From positions 19,375 through 83,374 of the forward strand of contig JAYVGH010000036.1 of NCBI GenBank assembly GCA_043772435.1: DNA of 64,000 bases, written 5' to 3'. Of this stretch, positions 2,447-46,507 are shown piece after piece (position 1 is the stretch's first letter; each line of letters opens with the position of its first letter). A program made the position numbers and the translations under genes. The notes below the pieces were generated by a model. It saw only the letters and a program-made list of their open reading frames with translations. It had not been told where the DNA came from and searched no databases. The DNA is from Bacteroidota bacterium (lineage in GTDB: Bacteria > Bacteroidota > Bacteroidia > B-17B0 > Aurantibacillaceae).

Positions 2447-3566
2447 TATTAAACTTAAACTTTAATATATTTAATAGTTTAAAATAATTTTTCCAAAGTT
2501 TTGTTTCCGTTTTAAATAAAGTGTGTGGGCGTTCCGATTCATTCATTAATTTATCAAAATCAGCTAAACTTAATCCTAGTTTTTTAAGTACATAGTCTTT
2601 TTCATTCAACAAATCATTTTCATTATAAAGTGGTTGTTTTAACTCAATTAAAGCTTGCTCTTTTGTAATTTGTTGACTGCAAATTAAATTTGAATAATGT
2701 GCTAATCGTTTATCAATACCAAAACGCGTAGGTAAAATATAGGCTTGATAAAATTTTGTGAAAATAGATTCGTAATGTTTGCCGCCATAATCACGCCAGT
2801 TTAATTTTTCGGAAATTAACTTTTTTGCTTCACCTTTATTGTATGGAATATAATTTAAAACTTGTATTGATTCTAATTTTAAGAACCAATGGTTGTAAAG
2901 TTTTTTGTAAAAACTGATATGAGGAAAGGATTTAATAGATTTTCCATTTCCAAATTTTTTATAAATATCTTTAATATTAGCCCAATCACCTTTATCAAAT
3001 ACCCAACCTTTTGGCATGATTGCTTCTGTAGCATAATTAAAGCCACTAATGGTATACTTTAATTTATATTTTTTTGCAATATTATAAATTGTCGCCATGA
3101 TAGCATGATCTGTTAATGCCTCAATATCAACTACACCTGCTTTTAAATATGCCAATTGCAATTCCTTAAATTCTTCCCAGTTAATTACATACGTGCTTAA
3201 AGAGTATCCTAATTTATTACAAATATTTTGAATATTTTCTGTTGCTAATTCGCTATTCCAGCCATTATCAAAGTGAACAACCAAAGGCCTTAATCCATTT
3301 TCCTTAGTCCAATTTGCTAAAAAAGTACTATCTACTCCACCACTAACTCCCAAAATACAATCAAATTCTTTTTTTAAACCACTAAGTTTAATTTCATCAA
3401 CTTTATTTTTTATCCAAAGTTGTTTCTGCTCAATATTGCCGAGTTTTGCAGTTACTGTATCGTAATATTCACAGTAGTTGCAAAGGTGGCTAGCATTGAA
3501 AGTAATATTTTTTACATTTTCTGCATTTAACAAACACCGAGTACAATTTTTTATTTTATTAATCAT
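2436..3566 (-). CDS. N-acetyl sugar amidotransferase (WbpG/WbuX-like, PP-loop)
   Basis: N-terminal CTRC...CNYC, PP-loop VSGGVDST, VHFDNGWNS, WRDYGGKHYES. Confidence 0.85.
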   Translation of the reverse strand: MINKIKNCTRCLLNAENVKNITFNASHLCNYCEYYDTVTAKLGNIEQKQLWIKNKVDEIKLSGLKKEFDCILGVSGGVDSTFLANWTKENGLRPLVVHFDNGWNSELATENIQNICNKLGYSLSTYVINWEEFKELQLAYLKAGVVDIEALTDHAIMATIYNIAKKYKLKYTISGFNYATEAIMPKGWVFDKGDWANIKDIYKKFGNGKSIKSFPHISFYKKLYNHWFLKLESIQVLNYIPYNKGEAKKLISEKLNWRDYGGKHYESIFTKFYQAYILPTRFGIDKRLAHYSNLICSQQITKEQALIELKQPLYNENDLLNEKDYVLKKLGLSLADFDKLMNESERPHTLFKTETKLWKNYFKLLNILKFKFNSAK

Positions 3567-39162: not shown

Positions 39163-40440
39163 ATGCTAAAAAGAGACACAACAATATTTAAATTAATTAA
39201 AGAAGAAGAGCATCGCCAAACACAAGGCATTGAACTTATTGCCAGCGAAAACTACGTTAGCAAACAAGTTATGCAGGCTATGGGTAGTGTGTTAACCAAT
39301 AAATATGCCGAAGGCTTACCCTTTAAACGCTACTACGGTGGTTGCGAAGTTGTAGATAAAGTTGAGCAATTGGCCATTGACCGTGCAAAAGAATTATTTG
39401 GTGCGGTTTGGGTAAATGTACAGCCACATTCAGGAGCACAAGCCAATGCTGCTGTTATGCTTGCTTGCTTAAAACCCGGCGATACTATTTTAGGGTTTGA
39501 CCTTAGCCATGGTGGACATTTAACCCACGGTTCACCTGTAAATTTTTCCGGAAAACTTTACCGTGCTACTTTTTACGGTGTTACAAAAGAAACAGGGTTA
39601 ATTGATTATGACAGTATTGAAAAAACTGCAAAAGCAGAAAAACCAAAAATGATTATTTGTGGTGCCAGTGCTTATTCTCGAGATTGGGATTACGAACGTT
39701 TTCGTAAAATTGCCGACTCGGTTGGCGCTATTTTATTAGCCGACATTTCGCACCCAAGCGGCTTAATTGCTAAAGGTATTTTAAACGATCCTATTCCGCA
39801 TTGCCACATTGTAACTACAACTACGCACAAAACATTGCGTGGCCCCCGCGGCGGTATGATTATGATGGGTAAAGATTTTGAAAACCCGTTTGGCGAAAAA
39901 ACACTAAAAGGTGAAACTAAATTAATGAGCAATTTGTTAGATATGGGTGTATTCCCCGGCACACAGGGTGGCCCGTTAGAACACGTTATTGCCTCAAAAG
40001 CCATTGCTTACGGCGAAGCGTTAACCGATGATTATATGCACTATTGTGTTCAATTAGTAAAAAATGCAAACACAATGGCAAAAGGCTTTATGGATTTGGG
40101 CTACAACATTGTTAGCAAAGGCACCAGCAACCACATGTTTTTAATTGATTTACGAACTAAAAACTTAAACGGCAAAGAAGCCTTAGCAGCTTTAGAACAA
40201 GTAAATATTACGGTAAATAAAAACATGGTACCTTTTGATGATAAATCCGCCTTTGTTACTTCGGGCATTCGCATTGGTTCGCCGGCAATTACTACACGCG
40301 GCTTAAAAGAAAAAGACTGTTTAAAAATTGTGGAATTAATTGACAATGTTTTAAAACATAAAGACAGCCCAAAAGAATTAGCGAAAATTAAAAAGAAGGT
40401 AAATACTATGATGGAAAAATATCCTTTATTTAAGGATTAA
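39163..40440 (+). CDS. glyA: Serine hydroxymethyltransferase
   Basis: [39 protein letters not shown]. Confidence 0.98.
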
Positions 40441-40475
40441 TCGTTAAAAATACGATCATTTAATTTCTTAAGAAC

Positions 40476-40496
40476 TTTTAGGTTTCAACCCTAAAA
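40476..40496 (+). terminator. Weak hairpin downstream of glyA
   Basis: TTTTAGG-N7-CCTAAAA, 35 nt after the glyA stop; AT-rich with no strong U-tract. Confidence 0.3.
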
Positions 40497-40671
40497 TGTA
40501 ACATAGTTTTAAACGTGAGAAAATTGTTATTTACTCTTTTGATGTAAATTTTTTAAAATCTCGTAAAATGTGCGATAAAACAAAACCCTTTTTAGCCTTT
40601 ACTATTTAAATGCAAGTAGGTGCTAATTAACACCCATGCAAACATTTTTAAACCTTTATTACCAATACACT

Positions 40672-40858
40672 AATTTAAGAAATCAACAATAGATAGGGTT
40701 ACGAAATAGTTTGTTGCAAGTTGGTTTTGTATAACGGTCTGCAATACAATCACACCTTTAAAATCTCCTCTCCACAAATGCTGCCTCATAACTAAAAACA
40801 TTTACAAAATGTTTTATTAACGCACTGCCCTGCTTCGCTCAAACGAGGACGAGCGGGG
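40672..40858. repeat. Dispersed non-coding element, copy 1
   Basis: First 64 nt are 61/64 identical to 45338..45401. The 3' block ending CAAACGAGGACGAGCGGGG is also shared. Confidence 0.9.
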
Positions 40859-41023
40859 CCATCAAAATGTCAATAGACTAATTATCCATTCCACCACCTT
40901 GATATAATTTAATACTAAGAATTTTAGTCCATATTTTTTGCAACTCAAAATTTATTTTTGAATTTACAAAACAGCATACTAAAAAAGTACTTAAAAAAAT
41001 AAAATATATTTCATGTTTATATT

Positions 41024-41713
41024 TTATTCCTTTATCACTTTTAAACTGGTTCTGCGGTTTTTTGATTTACCAGCATCGTTAAAATTATCAGCAATTGGTT
41101 TGGTATGGCCATATCCTTTTGAAGTTACCCTTGCTTCGGCTATGCCTTTAGTTATCAAATATTTTCTTACCGCATCCGCCCTACCCTGCGATAACGCAAG
41201 ATTTTCGTCATCTTTACCTACATTGTCGGTATGTCCCTGGATCTCTACCACCATAGTGTTTTTAATTTTTAATATTTCAACAAGATCGTTTAATGCTTTA
41301 AAAGAGTTTGGTTTTAAAGTAGATTTACCGGTGTCAAAATAAACATTATCCAAAACAAAATCTTTTGGCGGATCTATTTTAATGCCTACTTCATAGGTAG
41401 CATCTTTATCTGCCGGAACATTCATTTTGGTATAGTCCATATCAGTTATAAAATTTTTATACTTTAAACTATATGTTCCATTTACCGGCACTAAAATTTC
41501 AAACTTTCCACTTGCATCGGTTGTAACTTTAAAAACAACTTTTGTTTTATCATTTGAAAACATTATAATTTCTTTTCCCAAAGGTTTCCCTTTAAAATCG
41601 GTTACTACCCCTTTTAACAGAGCCAATTTATCATTAGGCACAAGGTTTTGAGCGATGCCGGAATTAATTACAAATAAAATAATTAAAATGGCAAAAGTTA
41701 TTTTTTGTTTCAT
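41024..41713 (-). CDS. OmpA-family protein with N-terminal beta-sandwich
   Basis: Signal peptide; VYFDTGKS, EIQGHTDNVG, LSQGRADAV, NRRT OmpA_C motifs. Confidence 0.9.
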   Translation of the reverse strand: MKQKITFAILIILFVINSGIAQNLVPNDKLALLKGVVTDFKGKPLGKEIIMFSNDKTKVVFKVTTDASGKFEILVPVNGTYSLKYKNFITDMDYTKMNVPADKDATYEVGIKIDPPKDFVLDNVYFDTGKSTLKPNSFKALNDLVEILKIKNTMVVEIQGHTDNVGKDDENLALSQGRADAVRKYLITKGIAEARVTSKGYGHTKPIADNFNDAGKSKNRRTSLKVIKE

Positions 41714-41811
41714 ACTTAAAGTTACTACTTTTCTGGTCTACAGCCTATTTGAAATTCACTAATTTTTATATCGTTTTACAGCTTTTCCAGATAATAAAAA
41801 TGTTTCCCCGT

Positions 41812-44800
41812 TTAAACCCTAACGCCTATTATTAAAACATCATCTACCTGTTCTAATTTGCCCTTCCATTCTTCAAAGCGCTGATCTAAAACATTTCTTT
41901 GTTCAGATAAGTTTAGTTCACAGACAGACAGCATTATTTCTTCCATTTGCTTGTACTTAAATTTCTTTCCTTTCGCGCCACCAAACTGATCGGGATAACC
42001 ATCAGTAAAAGTAAATATCATATCTCCTTTTTCGAGAGCAATTTCATTGTAAGTAAATAAGGTATCGCCCCCGTATGATTTTCCAACCGGCATTTTATCT
42101 GCTTTACAAACTAAAATTTTACGATTACGGATAATATAAAAACTATTGTTCGCCGCTGCAAATTCCAACTTCATATTTTTAACATCAAGTTTGCAAATTA
42201 TTGCGTCCATTCCGTCTTTACTTTCCTCAACGCTGCCCTCCGGGTTTAAAGCGCTGATTATTTCCGAACGCACGTCATTCAAAATCAAGTCAGGACGTAA
42301 GATCTGCTTCTGGTTGATTGACTCGCTCAGCTTGCTAATATTTAACAAACTCATAAAAGCCCCCGGAACCCCATGCCCGGTACAATCTGCTGTAATATAT
42401 AAAAATCCTTCCGGCGTTGGCGCCGCCCAATAAAAATCGCCGGCTACAATATCTTTTGGTTTAAACAAAACAAAGTATTCAGGTAAATTTTTCCGCAGTA
42501 AAGTATCGCTGGCAAGTAAAGCTTGCTGAATGCGTTTCGCGTAATTAATACTATCGGTCATTTCCTTATTCTTTTCTTCTACCAACTCTTTTTGAAATAC
42601 AACTTCGGCGGTTCTTTCATCTACCTTTTGCTCAAGCACTTTCTTTTCACGGTTCAGTTTTGACTCTCTGTATTTTATGAAACCAAAAATTAGTACAATA
42701 CCTGTGATGATACACACAATAAAAAACCAGGTAGTTTTCCAAAATGGAGGCGTAATAAAAAATTTGATAAGCGCTCCTTTTTCATTCCATAAACCATCGT
42801 TGTTGGATGCTTTTACTTTAAAAACATAAGTTCCGGGTAATAGATTAGAGTAATGTGCAGACCTGCTGTTAGCGTTATAATTCCATGCTTCATCAACTCC
42901 ATCGAGCTTAAATGAATATTGGTTATCACCCGAACTTACATAGTTTAGTGCCACAAAATCAAAGGTTAAGTTGTTCTGGTCATAAGGCAGCGTAAACTCT
43001 TTTACTTCAGCCAAAGGCTGATCAAATTTTATCTGCTCCTCAAATTTTTTAATTCCTGTAATTATTACCGGCGGAATATATTTATTGTATTCCATACTGT
43101 CGGGATAAAATGCGTTTAAGCCTTCGGTGCATCCGAAATAAACTTTTCCGTTTTTAGCTTTACAAGAAGCATTTGGGAAAAAAAGCCTGCCTTGAATTCC
43201 ATCACTCACATCGTAATTTATAAACGTGCCCGACTTTTTTGTAAATCTTGAGATGCCTTTTTTTGTGCTGATAAATAATTGCTCATGGTCGTTTTCTTCA
43301 ATTGCCATGATCATATTATCCGGCAAGCCGTCTTTTACAGTAAAGTGCTGGAACTTTTCTGTTAAAGGATCGTATTTATCAAGACCGTTCCTTGTGCCGA
43401 TCCAAAGAATGCCGGCATCATCTTCATACAAAGTATAAATAGTGCTGTGTGCAATACTTCCGGCATCTTCAGGATTATTAAAATATTTTACAAATGTTTT
43501 TTTATTCTCATTGTATTTATTCAGGCCAACATCGGTTCCAATCCATACTGTTCCGTTTTTTGAAACGTAAATAACATTAATTGTATTATCACTAACATCG
43601 TTTTTATTTTTCGGGTCAGCTTTAAACCGGAAAAATTTATTTGTTTTTTTATTATAAATATTTAATCCTTTTAATGTTCCGACCCATAAATTTTCTTTTT
43701 TATCTTCGGCTATTGAATAAACATAATTATCACTGATAGAGTTTATATCAGCCGGATCATTTGAATGATACGTAAATTTACCCGTAACCCTGTCAAATTC
43801 AGTTAAACCCCCTCTATATGTTCCAATCCACAGCTTATTATCTTTATCGCAAAAAATAGTTTTGATTTTATTTAAACCTGTATTATTTCCATCTTTTGGA
43901 TCTTTTTTATAGTTAGTTATTTTATTAGTTACCGGATCAAATTGATCAAAGCCATCCCATGTGCCTACCCATATTTTGTCCAGTTTGTCTGCTGTTACAG
44001 TGCGCACAGAGTTATAGCCCAAGCTTAACGGATTGCCGGGCTCATGTTTATAAAAATCAACTTGTTTTTTTATATTCACATATTTTGATATTCCTCCTCC
44101 TTCTGTACCTATCCATAAAATGCCTGAGCGATCGATATGCAGCGACCATACATCATTAAAATTTAAACTGCTCTTATTATTCGCATCGTAAAAATACCTT
44201 TCAAATGTTTCTGTTTGCGTATTGAAGCGGTTGATGCCTGAACCATAAGTACCAATCCATAAACTACCGTCATTATCTTTAGCAATTGGCCAGGTTAAAT
44301 TACTTCCAATGCTTTTTTTGTCTTCAGCATTGTATTTATAACTTTTAAAGGAACCTGTAATAGTATTAAATTTATTAAGTCCTCCACCCCACGTTGTAAT
44401 CCATAAAATATCTTTTTCATCTTCAAAAATAGTCCCAATTATATCGCAGCTAATGCTATTCGGCTTTTTGGGATCATGACGGTAATGCGTTAGCTTATCA
44501 GTTTTTGGATCAAGCCTTTCCAAACCACCGCCCCAGGTAGAAATCCAAATAATTCCTTTTTTATCTTCATGAATATCCCAAATCGCTCCTTTAGATAAAC
44601 TATTCAGATTTGAAGGATCGTTTTTATAACGTTTAAGTACCTTTCCTGTTTTTTTATCAAGCACATTTATTCCGGCCTCAAAAGTTCCAATCCATATTTC
44701 ACCATTTCTTAATTCAAGAATATTGTAAATGTTATTGCTGCTAATACTATTTGGATCTTTTTCATTGTGAATGAAACGAGTCACTTTTTCTGTAATAGGA

Positions 44801-45144
44801 TCAAAACGATTGAGTCCGCCATTTTCTGTTCCAAGCCATAGAAAGCCTTCTTTATCCAATATGAGAGAAAAAATATTATTGTTTGAAATGGTTGTTGAAT
44901 CTGAAGGGTCATTTTGAAATACCTTAAACTCGTAGCCATTGTATTTATTAAGTCCGTCCTGGGTAGCGAACCACAAAAATCCCTGTGAATCTTCTACTAT
45001 TTGAGGAATTGCCTTATTTGAAAGGCCATGTTCTAGCGGTACGGCTTCAAACTTATAATCTTTTTGCTGCGACCATAATAAATATGGAAAAACAAACAAA
45101 TAACAACATATGTATAACAGTATTTTTTTTACTTGCATTATCAA
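41812..45144 (-). CDS. Membrane sensor: Reg_prop beta-propellers, Y_Y_Y domain, TM, coiled coil, SpoIIE/PP2C phosphatase
   Basis: Repeated LWIGT..GGL blades, YSNLLPGTYVFKVKASN, then DIVAGDFYW, ADCTGHGVPG, FTDGYPDQFGG, DDVLIIG. Confidence 0.9.
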   Translation of the reverse strand: MIMQVKKILLYICCYLFVFPYLLWSQQKDYKFEAVPLEHGLSNKAIPQIVEDSQGFLWFATQDGLNKYNGYEFKVFQNDPSDSTTISNNNIFSLILDKEGFLWLGTENGGLNRFDPITEKVTRFIHNEKDPNSISSNNIYNILELRNGEIWIGTFEAGINVLDKKTGKVLKRYKNDPSNLNSLSKGAIWDIHEDKKGIIWISTWGGGLERLDPKTDKLTHYRHDPKKPNSISCDIIGTIFEDEKDILWITTWGGGLNKFNTITGSFKSYKYNAEDKKSIGSNLTWPIAKDNDGSLWIGTYGSGINRFNTQTETFERYFYDANNKSSLNFNDVWSLHIDRSGILWIGTEGGGISKYVNIKKQVDFYKHEPGNPLSLGYNSVRTVTADKLDKIWVGTWDGFDQFDPVTNKITNYKKDPKDGNNTGLNKIKTIFCDKDNKLWIGTYRGGLTEFDRVTGKFTYHSNDPADINSISDNYVYSIAEDKKENLWVGTLKGLNIYNKKTNKFFRFKADPKNKNDVSDNTINVIYVSKNGTVWIGTDVGLNKYNENKKTFVKYFNNPEDAGSIAHSTIYTLYEDDAGILWIGTRNGLDKYDPLTEKFQHFTVKDGLPDNMIMAIEENDHEQLFISTKKGISRFTKKSGTFINYDVSDGIQGRLFFPNASCKAKNGKVYFGCTEGLNAFYPDSMEYNKYIPPVIITGIKKFEEQIKFDQPLAEVKEFTLPYDQNNLTFDFVALNYVSSGDNQYSFKLDGVDEAWNYNANSRSAHYSNLLPGTYVFKVKASNNDGLWNEKGALIKFFITPPFWKTTWFFIVCIITGIVLIFGFIKYRESKLNREKKVLEQKVDERTAEVVFQKELVEEKNKEMTDSINYAKRIQQALLASDTLLRKNLPEYFVLFKPKDIVAGDFYWAAPTPEGFLYITADCTGHGVPGAFMSLLNISKLSESINQKQILRPDLILNDVRSEIISALNPEGSVEESKDGMDAIICKLDVKNMKLEFAAANNSFYIIRNRKILVCKADKMPVGKSYGGDTLFTYNEIALEKGDMIFTFTDGYPDQFGGAKGKKFKYKQMEEIMLSVCELNLSEQRNVLDQRFEEWKGKLEQVDDVLIIGVRV

Positions 45145-45337
45145 TCCGGAAGTTCAGCAGACTAATATAATGAAAAGAATTTACACGGAATTCGATTTTA
45201 CTTTTGATCACAAAGAAAACCCAAAGAAAGCTATTTCTTGGAAAGGAATTATTTATAAAAATTAGGCGTGATAATTTGCTAAAGAATGAAGATTTTTTTC
45301 TTGAATTTACCCGCGTATATCGGCGAAAAGATCTTTA

Positions 45338-45569
45338 AATTTAAGGAATCAACAATAGTTAGGGTTACGAAATAGTTTGTTGCAAGTTGGTTTTGTGTAA
45401 CAATATCCGCTCATAATCTAATATTACAATAATTGTAATTTATTATTGTGCGATATAATCACACCTTTAAAACATCCTCTAAACACAAAGGCTGGCTCAT
45501 TGATAAAAACATTTACAAAATGTTTTATTAACGCGCTTCCCTGCTTAGCTCAAACGAGGACGAGCGGGG
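45338..45569. repeat. Dispersed non-coding element, copy 2 (same orientation, about 43 nt longer in the middle)
   Basis: Matches 40672..40858 at both ends; the extra centre contains the ATTACAAT-A-ATTGTAAT palindrome. Confidence 0.9.
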
Positions 45570-45580
45570 TTGTTTAAGGA

Positions 45581-46507
45581 TTAATTTTGCCTGCCTGCTA
45601 ATAAAAACATCACAGCCATTCTAACTGCTACACCATTTTCAACCTGGTTAAGAATTATTGATTGTTTGCTATCTGCTACATCGCTGGTTATTTCTACCCC
45701 ACGGTTAATAGGCCCTGGGTGCATTACAATTATTTTTTTAGAAAGGCTGTCTAATAATTCTTTATCTAAGCCATAAAGCATGCTGTATTCACGTAACGAA
45801 GGGAAGTATTTTATATCCTGCCGTTCCAATTGTATGCGCAACATATTTGCTACGTCACACCATTCAAGCGCTTTGCGTAAATTTAATTCTACCTCAACAC
45901 CTAAACTTGTAATATATTTTGGTATTAAAGTTAATGGACCGCATACTTTTACTATTGCGCCTAATTTTTGTAAGCAAAATATATTTGAGAGGGCAACGCG
46001 CGAGTGTAAAATATCGCCAACAATTACTATTTTTTTACCTTTTAAATCGCCTAATTTTTCCTGAATAGAGAAAGCATCTAACAAAGCTTGCGTTGGATGT
46101 TCATGTGCGCCATCGCCTGCATTAATAATTTTTGCATTTACTTTTTTCGATAAATAAACTGCGGCTCCTGCACTGGCATGGCGCATCACAATCATATCTA
46201 CCTTCATTGCTAAAATATTATTTACAGTATCTACTAAGGTTTCGCCTTTTTTTACAGAGGAGTTAGAAGCAGAAAAATTTATTACATCGGCGCTTAAACG
46301 TTTTTGAGCTAACTCAAACGAAAGACGTGTACGTGTACTATTTTCAAAGAATAAGTTAGCTACTGTTATATCGCGAAGCGAGGGTACTTTTTTAATAGGA
46401 CGATTAATAACTTCTTTAAAATTTTGGGCAGTGTTTAAAATTAAATCAATGTCGTTTTTAGTAAGATTTTTTATACCGAGAAGATGATTTACGCTTAAAT
46501 GAGTCAT
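45581..46507 (-). CDS. pyrB: Aspartate carbamoyltransferase catalytic subunit
   Basis: FFENSTRTRLSF, KGETLVDT, INAGDGAHEHPTQALLD, MHPGPINRGVE. Confidence 0.97.
   Translation of the reverse strand: MTHLSVNHLLGIKNLTKNDIDLILNTAQNFKEVINRPIKKVPSLRDITVANLFFENSTRTRLSFELAQKRLSADVINFSASNSSVKKGETLVDTVNNILAMKVDMIVMRHASAGAAVYLSKKVNAKIINAGDGAHEHPTQALLDAFSIQEKLGDLKGKKIVIVGDILHSRVALSNIFCLQKLGAIVKVCGPLTLIPKYITSLGVEVELNLRKALEWCDVANMLRIQLERQDIKYFPSLREYSMLYGLDKELLDSLSKKIIVMHPGPINRGVEITSDVADSKQSIILNQVENGVAVRMAVMFLLAGRQN

Follow-up and report, generated by a model that had tools for sequence, protein, structure and literature searches.

Direct repeats around a sensor-phosphatase and OmpA gene pair as probable relics of a degenerate RAYT-REP locus

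The repeat pair and the segment it encloses

Two direct repeats, termed copies A and B, lie between glyA and pyrB in the window, by which we mean the whole 64,000-nucleotide stretch of Bacteroidota DNA that was analysed (Table 1). The preliminary description of this DNA had given the positions and common orientation of the copies, a 5' block identical at 61 of 64 nt, a shared 3' end and a variable middle, with exactly two genes between the copies and with glyA and pyrB outside; all of these features were reproduced. The 3' block comprises 99 nt with 86% identity between the copies, both of which end in ...GCTCAAACGAGGACGAGCGGGG, and the middle differs by indels of 43 and 2 nt. The informative reading direction is the minus strand.

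Table 1. Features at the glyA-pyrB junction, in window coordinates
Feature	Position	Strand	Description
glyA, serine hydroxymethyltransferase	39163..40440	+	Conserved left flank
RAYT pseudogene	40534..40735	-	Located by tblastn; matches residues ~7-88 of intact relatives
Repeat copy A	40672..40858	-	Outer REP unit, decayed inner REP unit, RAYT codons ~7-42
Inner REP unit, copy A	40739..40787	+	Fully decayed, 0 kcal/mol
Outer REP unit, copy A	40794..40858	+	Hairpin AAAACATTT-ACA-AAATGTTTT, then ...GCTCAAACGAGGACGAGCGGGG
Cassette gene 2	41024..41713	-	OmpA family, CarboxypepD_reg-like N-terminal domain, 229 aa (Pfam)
Cassette gene 1	41812..45144	-	Reg_prop beta-propeller / Y_Y_Y sensor fused to SpoIIE-type PP2C phosphatase, 1110 aa (Pfam)
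Repeat copy B	45338..45569	-	Outer REP unit, decayed inner REP unit, ~30-nt leader, RAYT start codon, stub to intact-gene codon ~42
RAYT 5' stub, copy B	45338..45414	-	ATG at 45414..45412; DNA alignment and tblastn
Inner REP unit, copy B	45448..45499	+	Decayed, -1.6 kcal/mol
Outer REP unit, copy B	45505..45569	+	Architecture as in copy A; end 11 nt from the pyrB stop codon
pyrB, aspartate carbamoyltransferase	45581..46507	-	Conserved right flank

A blastn search of the whole 3.79-Mb assembly with one copy recovered a single other copy (E = 3e-42, well outside chance), giving two in all; since the assembly is a draft in 197 contigs, further copies may reside in unassembled repeats. Comparison of the copies revealed no inverted ends in either and no target-site duplication, their flanks being different. 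A MITE or other non-autonomous transposon was rejected on these grounds (no terminal inverted repeats, no target-site duplication, two copies in 3.79 Mb), and the non-autonomous mobile element envisaged earlier is not multi-copy in this genome and also lacks a cognate intact RAYT.

The comparison set consisted of 76 genomes of the genus, namely the genome itself and those of 75 other species. Apart from its REP motif, the element is not conserved in these 75 species. The whole element matched 40 relatives only weakly in AT-rich sequence (blastn), with one short match to the 3' block that provided the lead to REP sequences. An exact 24-mer from the 5' block had no match in a metagenome contig collection, and a scan for sigma-70 promoters and terminators gave no prediction at either copy.

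The best match of the sensor-PP2C protein among the 75 other species shares 61% identity, all others being at or below 36%, and a close orthologue is missing from the nearest relatives. In G067, the nearest syntenic species, glyA and pyrB are separated by a gap of 1066 nt holding one unrelated 311-aa open reading frame; the cassette, RAYT and REP are all absent from this junction, though the whole neighbourhood is syntenic. The suggestion that the cassette is lineage-specific is borne out by this comparison, and because G067 has no cassette we regard the sensor-PP2C and OmpA segment as accessory DNA at a synteny breakpoint. The copies bracket this 4.5-kb accessory segment at the glyA-pyrB breakpoint. 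A search with the sensor in genome and metagenome contig collections returned a 60% homologue lacking an adjacent OmpA gene, a 99% fragment of this very locus and some distant paralogues; no donor context for the sensor-OmpA pair was found in these collections.

Other assemblies of the locus are 99.5-100% identical with the layout unchanged, and none of those found shows a single-copy empty site or a circular junction. Exact-protein look-up of pyrB and OmpA likewise gave no empty-site strain; all that it returned were identical copies with this layout, on contigs broken at the repeats. The strain variant with 99.5% identity carries no substitution in copy A; fewer than one is expected, hence the variant is uninformative.

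Accessory DNA flanked by direct repeats is the arrangement expected of the attL and attR sites of an integrative island. Between the copies, however, Pfam identifies only OmpA/CarboxypepD_reg and Reg_prop/Y_Y_Y/SpoIIE domains, with no integrase or recombinase, and repeats of 190-230 nt that are 73-95% identical and recognizable as the remnants of a gene and of REP units leave this origin with a negligible probability.

Remnants of a RAYT gene and of REP units

The preliminary description had proposed looking for a RAYT/HUH transposase, and it was this search that gave the key to the identity of the element. Intact RAYT proteins of congeners score 95-99 bits against NCBIfam NF047646, 'REP-associated tyrosine transposase' (cut-off 80), and display the motifs NHLH, WQ and YIHQNP in about 180 aa. 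In the classification of TnpA-Y1 proteins, NH[LIV]H, WQ and YIH[QN]NP at about 180 aa are features of subclass 2.6 (Quentin et al., 2018; PMC6006769), which corresponds to group 5 of the RAYTs, the Bacteroidota type, in Bertels et al. (2017; PMC5581495).

In tblastn searches, the intact RAYTs of three congeners match a segment that straddles the left edge of copy A (E = 7e-16 in the window and 3e-14 genome-wide), and they also match the stub in copy B. The window, which had been described as free of a transposase, thus does contain transposase sequence. The read-through fragment matches NF047646 with E = 1.2e-4 and 22 bits; with no more than 67 residues left, it stays under the 80-bit cut-off. 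It carries a 16-codon deletion, one in-frame stop (N*C) and one frameshift, and the HUH motif reads S-T-Y-L-H in place of S-N-H-L-H (NH(L/I)H to TYLH). The sequence ends at ...RDFKKFTSKE, and the C-terminal half, including the catalytic Tyr of the YIH[QN]NP region, is absent. Neither this missing half nor a downstream REP was detected in 40300-45700, and the genome encodes no intact RAYT of this type. The remnant is a pseudogene and not a functional member of the family. A second, different RAYT, split over contig ends, is present in the genome; its hairpins (GGAGGCGAATGCCTCC) differ.

The element had been considered non-coding on the argument that reading frames are not conserved between the copies. 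On the minus strand one frame of the 64-nt block is in fact kept in both, VIQNQLATNYFVTLSIVDFLN in copy A and IVTQNQLATNYFVTLTIVDSLN in copy B, and it encodes the RAYT N-terminus. The copy-B stub starts with MSGYCY, against MSGDRY in intact genes, and continues after a frameshift as ...TQNQLATNYFVTLTIVDSLN. Copy B halts at codon ~42 and copy A runs on to the left as far as 40534, some 46 codons further; the start codon and leader are missing from copy A through a deletion of about 43 nt. Colinear DNA alignment of both copies with the intact loci of G087, G084 and G045 shows one common succession, from REP unit through leader and ATG to the N-terminal codons. It also reveals a 48-nt in-frame internal deletion common to both copies. 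The gene was therefore already broken when it was duplicated; a dead locus was duplicated and no element was transposed.

The 3' third of the element is REP-like, and for this part the REP-like character proposed in the preliminary description is right. The motif of this third, GCTCAAACGAGGACGAG, is present in 12 of the 76 genomes. In G084, G045 and G070 it is 25-90 nt away from the RAYT gene, and in G087 a variant is found at about 80 nt. G045 possesses 73 copies, arranged as imperfect palindromes (doublets) of ~138 nt that also flank its single RAYT gene. Folding of intact units yields a pair of hairpins (-19 to -20 kcal/mol, z about -6). In most units the stem measures 11 bp and the loop 11 nt, but the loop of one G084 variant (CGTCCTCGTTTGTAACGAGGACG) is only 4 nt long. 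An independent truncated relic of a RAYT start occurs in G004, at an unrelated site.

The canonical 11-bp CGTCCTCGTTT/AAACGAGGACG stem is gone in both window copies. The outer REP unit of copy A retains two hairpins (DNA -12.5 kcal/mol, z -4.2) and that of copy B folds with -11.2 kcal/mol (DNA, z -3.1); folding significantly better than shuffles, the outer unit may not be entirely inert. Its terminus (...CCCCGCTCGTCCTCGTTTGAGC on the minus strand) is the exact boundary of the repeat. The inner unit of copy A is colinear with the REP unit that abuts the intact RAYT genes of G087 and G084, and in copy B GTGCGATATAATCACACCTTTAAAACATCCTC corresponds to GTGCGATGCAATCGCACCTCTAAAACATCCTC of G087. REP units in the window are confined to the upstream side of the two RAYT remnants, whose downstream side is deleted, and the genome holds no further copies. 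The two units are in direct (tandem) orientation without an inverted partner. A REPIN was rejected as an identity for the element: the units are direct rather than inverted, there are two copies and there is no whole-element fold beyond that of shuffles.

Taken together, the alignments make it very likely that each repeat is the relic of one degenerate minus-strand RAYT-REP locus, or 'REPtron', duplicated after its death. Read along the minus strand, a copy runs from an outer REP hairpin through a decayed REP and a leader of ~30 nt to the start codon and the first ~42 RAYT codons. Since both copies share the 48-nt deletion and the loss of the canonical stem, the ~230-nt piece that was duplicated came from a locus already dead, and copy A lost its 43 nt, start codon included, after the duplication.

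The preliminary description had also entertained an unannotated non-coding element or a repeated ncRNA, and the copies could be imagined as paralogous structured small RNAs or cis-regulatory RNAs; each contains several local stems and is positioned just downstream of a minus-strand gene. Nevertheless, neither copy has a match in Rfam 15 at the gathering score or at E<=1, and whole-element folds on both strands are no better than those of shuffles (z -0.19, -1.37, +0.68 and -1.52). Two thirds of the element consist of the 5' end of a dead RAYT gene and its leader, and nothing of the element but the REP motif is conserved in the 75 other species. We consider an RNA origin hardly credible.

Routes to the present arrangement

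How the copies of the dead RAYT-REP locus came to bracket the cassette is a separate matter. Recombination rather than transposition is the route that we tentatively favour as the most likely, although we would not yet put it at even odds. One candidate is that a circular DNA bearing the cassette together with part of the locus integrated by a single crossover; another is that the REP locus itself underwent unequal or illegitimate recombination. The layout would also allow the copies to have mediated insertion of the cassette. We note against recombination that the right-hand boundary of both copies is exactly the natural REP terminus, which a sequence-specific cut of RAYT type would explain more neatly than random recombination.

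One rival reading holds that a defective REPtron landed twice. Another RAYT, acting in trans, would have copied a whole REP-RAYT(delta48)-REP unit into two adjacent intergenic spaces, after which copy B was truncated at its 3' side; the cassette would have arrived independently. In both copies the end coincides precisely with the REP terminus, which is also true of REP copies in relatives, a second RAYT is present in the genome and the G004 relic is a comparable truncated start elsewhere. However, the hairpins of that second RAYT are different, and there are no other copies in the genome. According to Bertels et al. (PMC5581495), a RAYT gene is typically present once per genome and does not copy itself. 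Gain of the cassette and two landings, three events in all, would be required at a single spot, together with a deletion ending at the very codon where the homology between A and B stops, and we judge this course of events to be unlikely.

A second reading, which corresponds to the mobile element that mediated insertion in the preliminary description, treats the segment as a REP-bounded cargo element, in which the direct REPs act like the left and right subterminal hairpins of an element of IS200/IS605 type and the 4.7-kb segment is moved in single-stranded form by a RAYT in trans. The direct orientation of the REP units is the geometry used by Y1 transposases, the repeat boundary falls at the REP terminus and the cassette is missing from the nearest syntenic species. 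Yet the genome contains no cognate RAYT, and neither copy retains the canonical REP stem. End-to-end excision leaves the RAYT stub beside both REPs unexplained, and the cassette occurs at no second location in the genome and metagenome contigs, the element itself having two copies only. This reading is very improbable, and scarcely less so is the corresponding historical claim, that the same-orientation REP ends once bounded an IS200/IS605-like unit on its left and right, with which a trans-acting RAYT moved the sensor-OmpA cargo. To our knowledge, mobilization of a gene cassette bounded by RAYT/REP sequences has not been demonstrated for REP systems.

Because the genome has neither a cognate RAYT nor other REP copies, the repeats are enzymatically inert today. 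Rare RecA-dependent loss of the cassette through a 190-230-bp direct repeat is plausible. It is likewise plausible that the hairpins, which follow pyrB by 11 nt and the OmpA gene by 165 nt, serve as 3'-end or terminator structures.

Significance and relation to known systems

The main gain is a corrected annotation, in that an apparently novel non-coding repeat is a dead and partly duplicated RAYT-REP locus. The locus is an ordinary decayed example of a known system and leaves current understanding unchanged. It does offer a datable case of REPtron decay, in which a 48-nt deletion was followed by duplication and by independent decay of the copies, and it places relics of a RAYT-REP locus at a synteny breakpoint where accessory genes were gained. 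The data from the genus document a Bacteroidota REP family with a CGTC-starting stem, physically tied to RAYT genes of subclass 2.6, and include one species with about 73 REPIN-like doublets, which should be of use to specialists in REP/RAYT evolution.

The window element resembles a REPtron, as described in Quentin et al. (PMC6006769) and Bertels et al. (PMC5581495), in being colinear with the REP, leader and N-terminus of intact loci in congeners, where hairpin units flank the gene and further copies lie elsewhere in the genome. It differs in its dead gene, its decayed REP stems, the lack of a REP population and the duplication of a ~230-nt piece 4.7 kb away. REPINs are inverted REP doublets (Bertels & Rainey, 2011; PMC3116915). 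The palindromic doublets around the single RAYT gene of G045 are similar, whereas the REP units of the window are tandem and found only beside RAYT remnants.

CGTC-tagged REPs have been reported in Bacteroidetes, in families with 8-9-bp stems, 4-5-nt loops and a CCA-like tail that 'apparently lack a dedicated transposase' (Di Nocera et al., 2013; PMC3733652). In this genus, too, the canonical hairpin starts with CGTC (CGTCCTCGTTT...AAACGAGGACG), the published families being compared by description. In most units, however, its stem is 11 bp long and its loop 11 nt, and RAYT genes are bordered by these hairpins. A weaker form of the REP-cargo reading is that the CGTC-starting hairpins of this genus would be served by a RAYT of their own, at odds with what has been published on CGTC REPs.

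In enterobacteria, REP sequences mediate duplications or rearrangements. Campbell-type (single-crossover) integration leaves direct repeats of the homologous segment around the inserted DNA. By analogy, the present arrangement may be likened to such an integration, in that one repeat, copy A, extends into the rest of the resident locus.

The repeat pair and its surroundings

The preliminary description placed two direct copies of a repeat at 40672-40858 (copy A) and 45338-45569 (copy B), in the same orientation and with 61/64 identity over a 64 nt 5' block; a re-check of the sequence and alignment agree on each point. The 3' block spans 99 nt (86% identical) and the copies share the end ...GCTCAAACGAGGACGAGCGGGG. 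Copy B is longer by 45 nt, the result of mid-element indels of 43 and 2 nt. When copy number was checked by blastn, as had been proposed, the copies matched only each other in the draft assembly of 197 contigs and 3.79 Mb (E = 3e-42), and fuzzy searches of this draft genome found no further copies of either conserved block. Gene calls and Pfam matches agree that exactly two genes, here termed the cassette, are enclosed, with glyA and pyrB outside.

Features at the glyA-pyrB locus (window positions)
Feature	Position	Strand	Remarks
glyA	39163-40440	+	outside copies
RAYT pseudogene	40534-40735	-	lesions: 16-codon deletion, in-frame stop, frameshift, HUH -> TYLH
OmpA-family gene	41024-41713	-	between copies
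Reg_prop/Y_Y_Y sensor fused to SpoIIE-type PP2C phosphatase	41812-45144	-	between copies
pyrB	45581-46507	-	outside copies

A REP hairpin family and its transposase genes

A weak match of the last 27 nt of the repeat in one congener led to a REP family. With at most one mismatch, GCTCAAACGAGGACGAG is present in 12 of the 76 genomes of the genus, in which the reversed-pattern control gave 0 occurrences; G045 (G denoting genomes of this genus) has 73 copies, and G084 and G087 five each. The consensus unit in relatives, GTGCGTTACAAACGCAC-N-TAAAAC-CGTCCTCGTTT-CCGCTnnGCTC-AAACGAGGACG-AG-GGG, forms two DNA hairpins (-19 to -20 kcal/mol, z about -6), and beyond the terminal GGG similarity between copies ceases. 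The 3' block of the window repeat belongs to this REP-type hairpin family, so the earlier label 'REP-like' is upheld for this part. The G045 unit is the right half of an imperfect palindrome of ~138 nt that matches its own reverse complement, a REPIN-like (inverted REP) doublet (e.g. stretches L065 1200-2330 and L052 200-540). The single subclass 2.6 RAYT gene of G045 is flanked by such doublets, with four left arms in tandem array upstream. Many of the 73 motif copies lie at contig ends.

The hairpins are those of a RAYT, or REP-associated tyrosine transposase. A search for a RAYT or HUH transposase near other copies had been suggested, and RAYT genes do adjoin the motif in G084, G045, G070 and G087. 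Genes of ~185 codons found next to the motif in selected genomes have weak Pfam Y1_Tnp scores; on NCBIfam NF047646, 'REP-associated tyrosine transposase' (cut-off 80 bits), the 182-residue G084 protein scores 95.9 bits and those of G045 and G087 score 95 and 99 bits. These three proteins of about 180 residues carry S-N-H-L-H, W-Q/R and Y-I-H-Q-N-P motifs, features given for TnpA-Y1 subclass 2.6 in PMC6006769. The motif is 25 nt from the gene in G084, 51 nt in G045 and 87 nt in G070, and in G087 a variant REP unit is positioned about 80 nt upstream. In each of the three genomes with at least five motif copies there is a RAYT that shares 65% identity or more with the G084 protein.

A broken RAYT gene in both copies

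Read on the minus strand, the remainder of the repeat is the beginning of a RAYT gene that is now dead. With the three intact RAYTs as queries, tblastn identified the pseudogene at E = 3e-14 against the own genome and 7e-16 within the window. It reads ...VIQNQLATNYFVTLSIVD(16 residues missing)FLN*CIGNKGLKMFAWVLISTYLHL / frameshift / IVKAKKGFVLSHILRDFKKFTSKE* and aligns with G045 MSGDRYVIANQEQNYFLTLTVVDWVDVFTRKDYKLIITESLNYCIENKGLEVFAWVIMSNHIHLMIRAKEGFILSNILRDFKKFTSKE...; the stop, frameshift, deletion, altered HUH and truncation are read from this alignment. The C-terminal half is absent, and thus there is no catalytic Tyr. The 64 nt block corresponds to RAYT codons ~7-42. Copy B reads IVTQNQLATNYFVTLTIVDSLN, with frame and 16-codon gap identical to copy A, and the similarity of the copies ceases directly after the N of IVTQNQLATNYFVTLTIVDSLN. 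The 43 nt found only in copy B contain the original start and leader (ATG 45414..45412; MSGYCY versus MSGDRY). This piece has been deleted from copy A, where the remnant ...TATAACGGTC matches ...TATAACGGTCTCCGCTCAT of the intact G087 gene and of a relic in G004. That relic, an independent one (contig C32; L002 1479-1572), comprises the first 14 RAYT codons (MSGDRYTIANQHHV), leader, one hairpin and nothing more; its flanks match contigs C59 and C134 of G000, not the glyA/pyrB locus.

Aligned by MAFFT with the intact G087, G084 and G045 loci, the two copies prove colinear with them, the order being N-terminal codons, leader, inner REP unit and outer REP unit. The structure of the inner unit is fully gone (0 kcal/mol in A, -1.6 in B); the outer unit retains two hairpins (-12.5 and -11.2 kcal/mol), the second of them built on a different stem. 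The proposal of a non-coding element or repeated ncRNA fails, since the 64 nt block consists of RAYT codons in a frame common to A and B. Nor is the repeat a known or evident RNA: Rfam 15 gave no match in the whole window at gathering score or in 40400-45800 at E<=1, and whole-copy folds of both strands of A and B had energies no better than those of dinucleotide shuffles (z = -0.19, -1.37, +0.68, -1.52).

A 48 nt deletion is common to both copies, and both have lost the canonical REP stem. These lesions are therefore older than the duplication, and the item duplicated was a ~230 nt piece of an already broken locus, a history that fits poorly with self-catalysed transposition. The 43 nt deletion in copy A came with or after duplication; the part of copy B beyond codon ~42 was removed with or after duplication, or never copied. 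In intact G087 (L066 about 3300-3360, codons ~24-40) a 9/10 nt direct repeat, AATCAACAAT ... AATCTACAAT, exactly 48 nt apart, bounds the segment missing from both copies (compared with window 40672-40700), suggesting slippage between the two repeats as the origin of the deletion.

The own draft genome holds no intact RAYT of the cognate type and no REP copies besides those in A and B. A second RAYT type, with about 45% identity to the first, lies in pieces at contig ends outside the window (C64:2-226, C100:5-142, C107:5-100) and adjoins different hairpins (GGAGGCGAATGCCTCC / GGGGGCGAATGCCCCC); the first ~98 nt are common to C100 and C107, so it is present in at least two copies. Three classical IS200-like Y1 transposase genes (C113:8060-8404, C14:14800-15144, C45:36794-37138; 86-92 bits on PF01797), one with four stop codons, are unrelated to the RAYT relic.

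The cassette and its acquisition

Located in 76/76 genus genomes, glyA and pyrB are adjacent in only two, this one and G067, the nearest syntenic species, with GlyA and PyrB each 97% identical and synteny over more than 15 kb on either side. In G067 (L069 8572-9634 versus window 40441-45580) 1066 nt separate the stop codons and hold one 311-residue ORF with no Pfam match; RAYT, REP and cassette are all absent. As to the proposed check of relatives for adjacency with one copy, the genes are adjacent in G067 without the cassette and with no copy between them. G003, G004 and G017 differ again in the genes that lie downstream of glyA and pyrB; glyA and pyrB themselves are 130 kb apart in G003 and on separate contigs with other neighbours in G004 and G017.

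The best match to the sensor in the genus is 61% identical (G060, no OmpA neighbour) and every other at most 36%. Reg_prop/Y_Y_Y/PP2C sensors form a large family, a first look giving dozens of candidates in each genome, and distant paralogues (31-36% identical) occur no more than a few kb from pyrB at L083 6591-9935 (G076), L072 14585-17749 (G004) and L074 (G017). Public assemblies with an identical OmpA or PyrB protein have the identical layout at 100% identity (one MAG fragment, 99.5%). Short public contigs end within the repeats, a break to be expected from the 31-36-mers that A and B share; neither the public assemblies nor contig searches revealed an empty site or alternative arrangement. 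These comparisons show the cassette to be accessory DNA at a glyA/pyrB synteny breakpoint.

We infer that recombination placed the copies on either side of the cassette. A sequence-specific, RAYT-type cut would account for the right-hand repeat boundary, which coincides exactly with the natural REP terminus, and we give it a small probability. If the resident REP-RAYT relic underwent a single crossover with circular DNA bearing the cassette and part of that locus, the product would have a direct repeat on either side, one running on into the rest of the pseudogene, exactly as observed. The available data do not distinguish this single crossover from unequal or illegitimate recombination, or from an exchange of the entire glyA-pyrB spacer for foreign DNA already so structured. 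As to present-day roles, the cassette could on rare occasions be deleted by homologous recombination between the repeats, and the outer hairpins, which lie 11 nt past pyrB and 165 nt past the OmpA gene, may be 3'-end structures.

Published accounts such as PMC3116915, PMC5581495 and PMC6006769 already cover REPtrons (RAYT genes with flanking REP hairpins), REPINs and the decay of RAYT genes well. Mildly unusual here are only the duplication of a dead-REPtron fragment around accessory genes and RAYT-linked hairpins with a CGTC stem start. The canonical stem opens with CGTC (CGTCCTCGTTT...AAACGAGGACG) in units flanking RAYT genes (L068 2020-3125 in G084; L066 in G087; L065 in G045). CGTC REP families are stated in one report to 'apparently lack a dedicated transposase' (PMC3733652); the present hairpins, which resemble these in the CGTC stem start, differ in being physically linked to RAYT genes.
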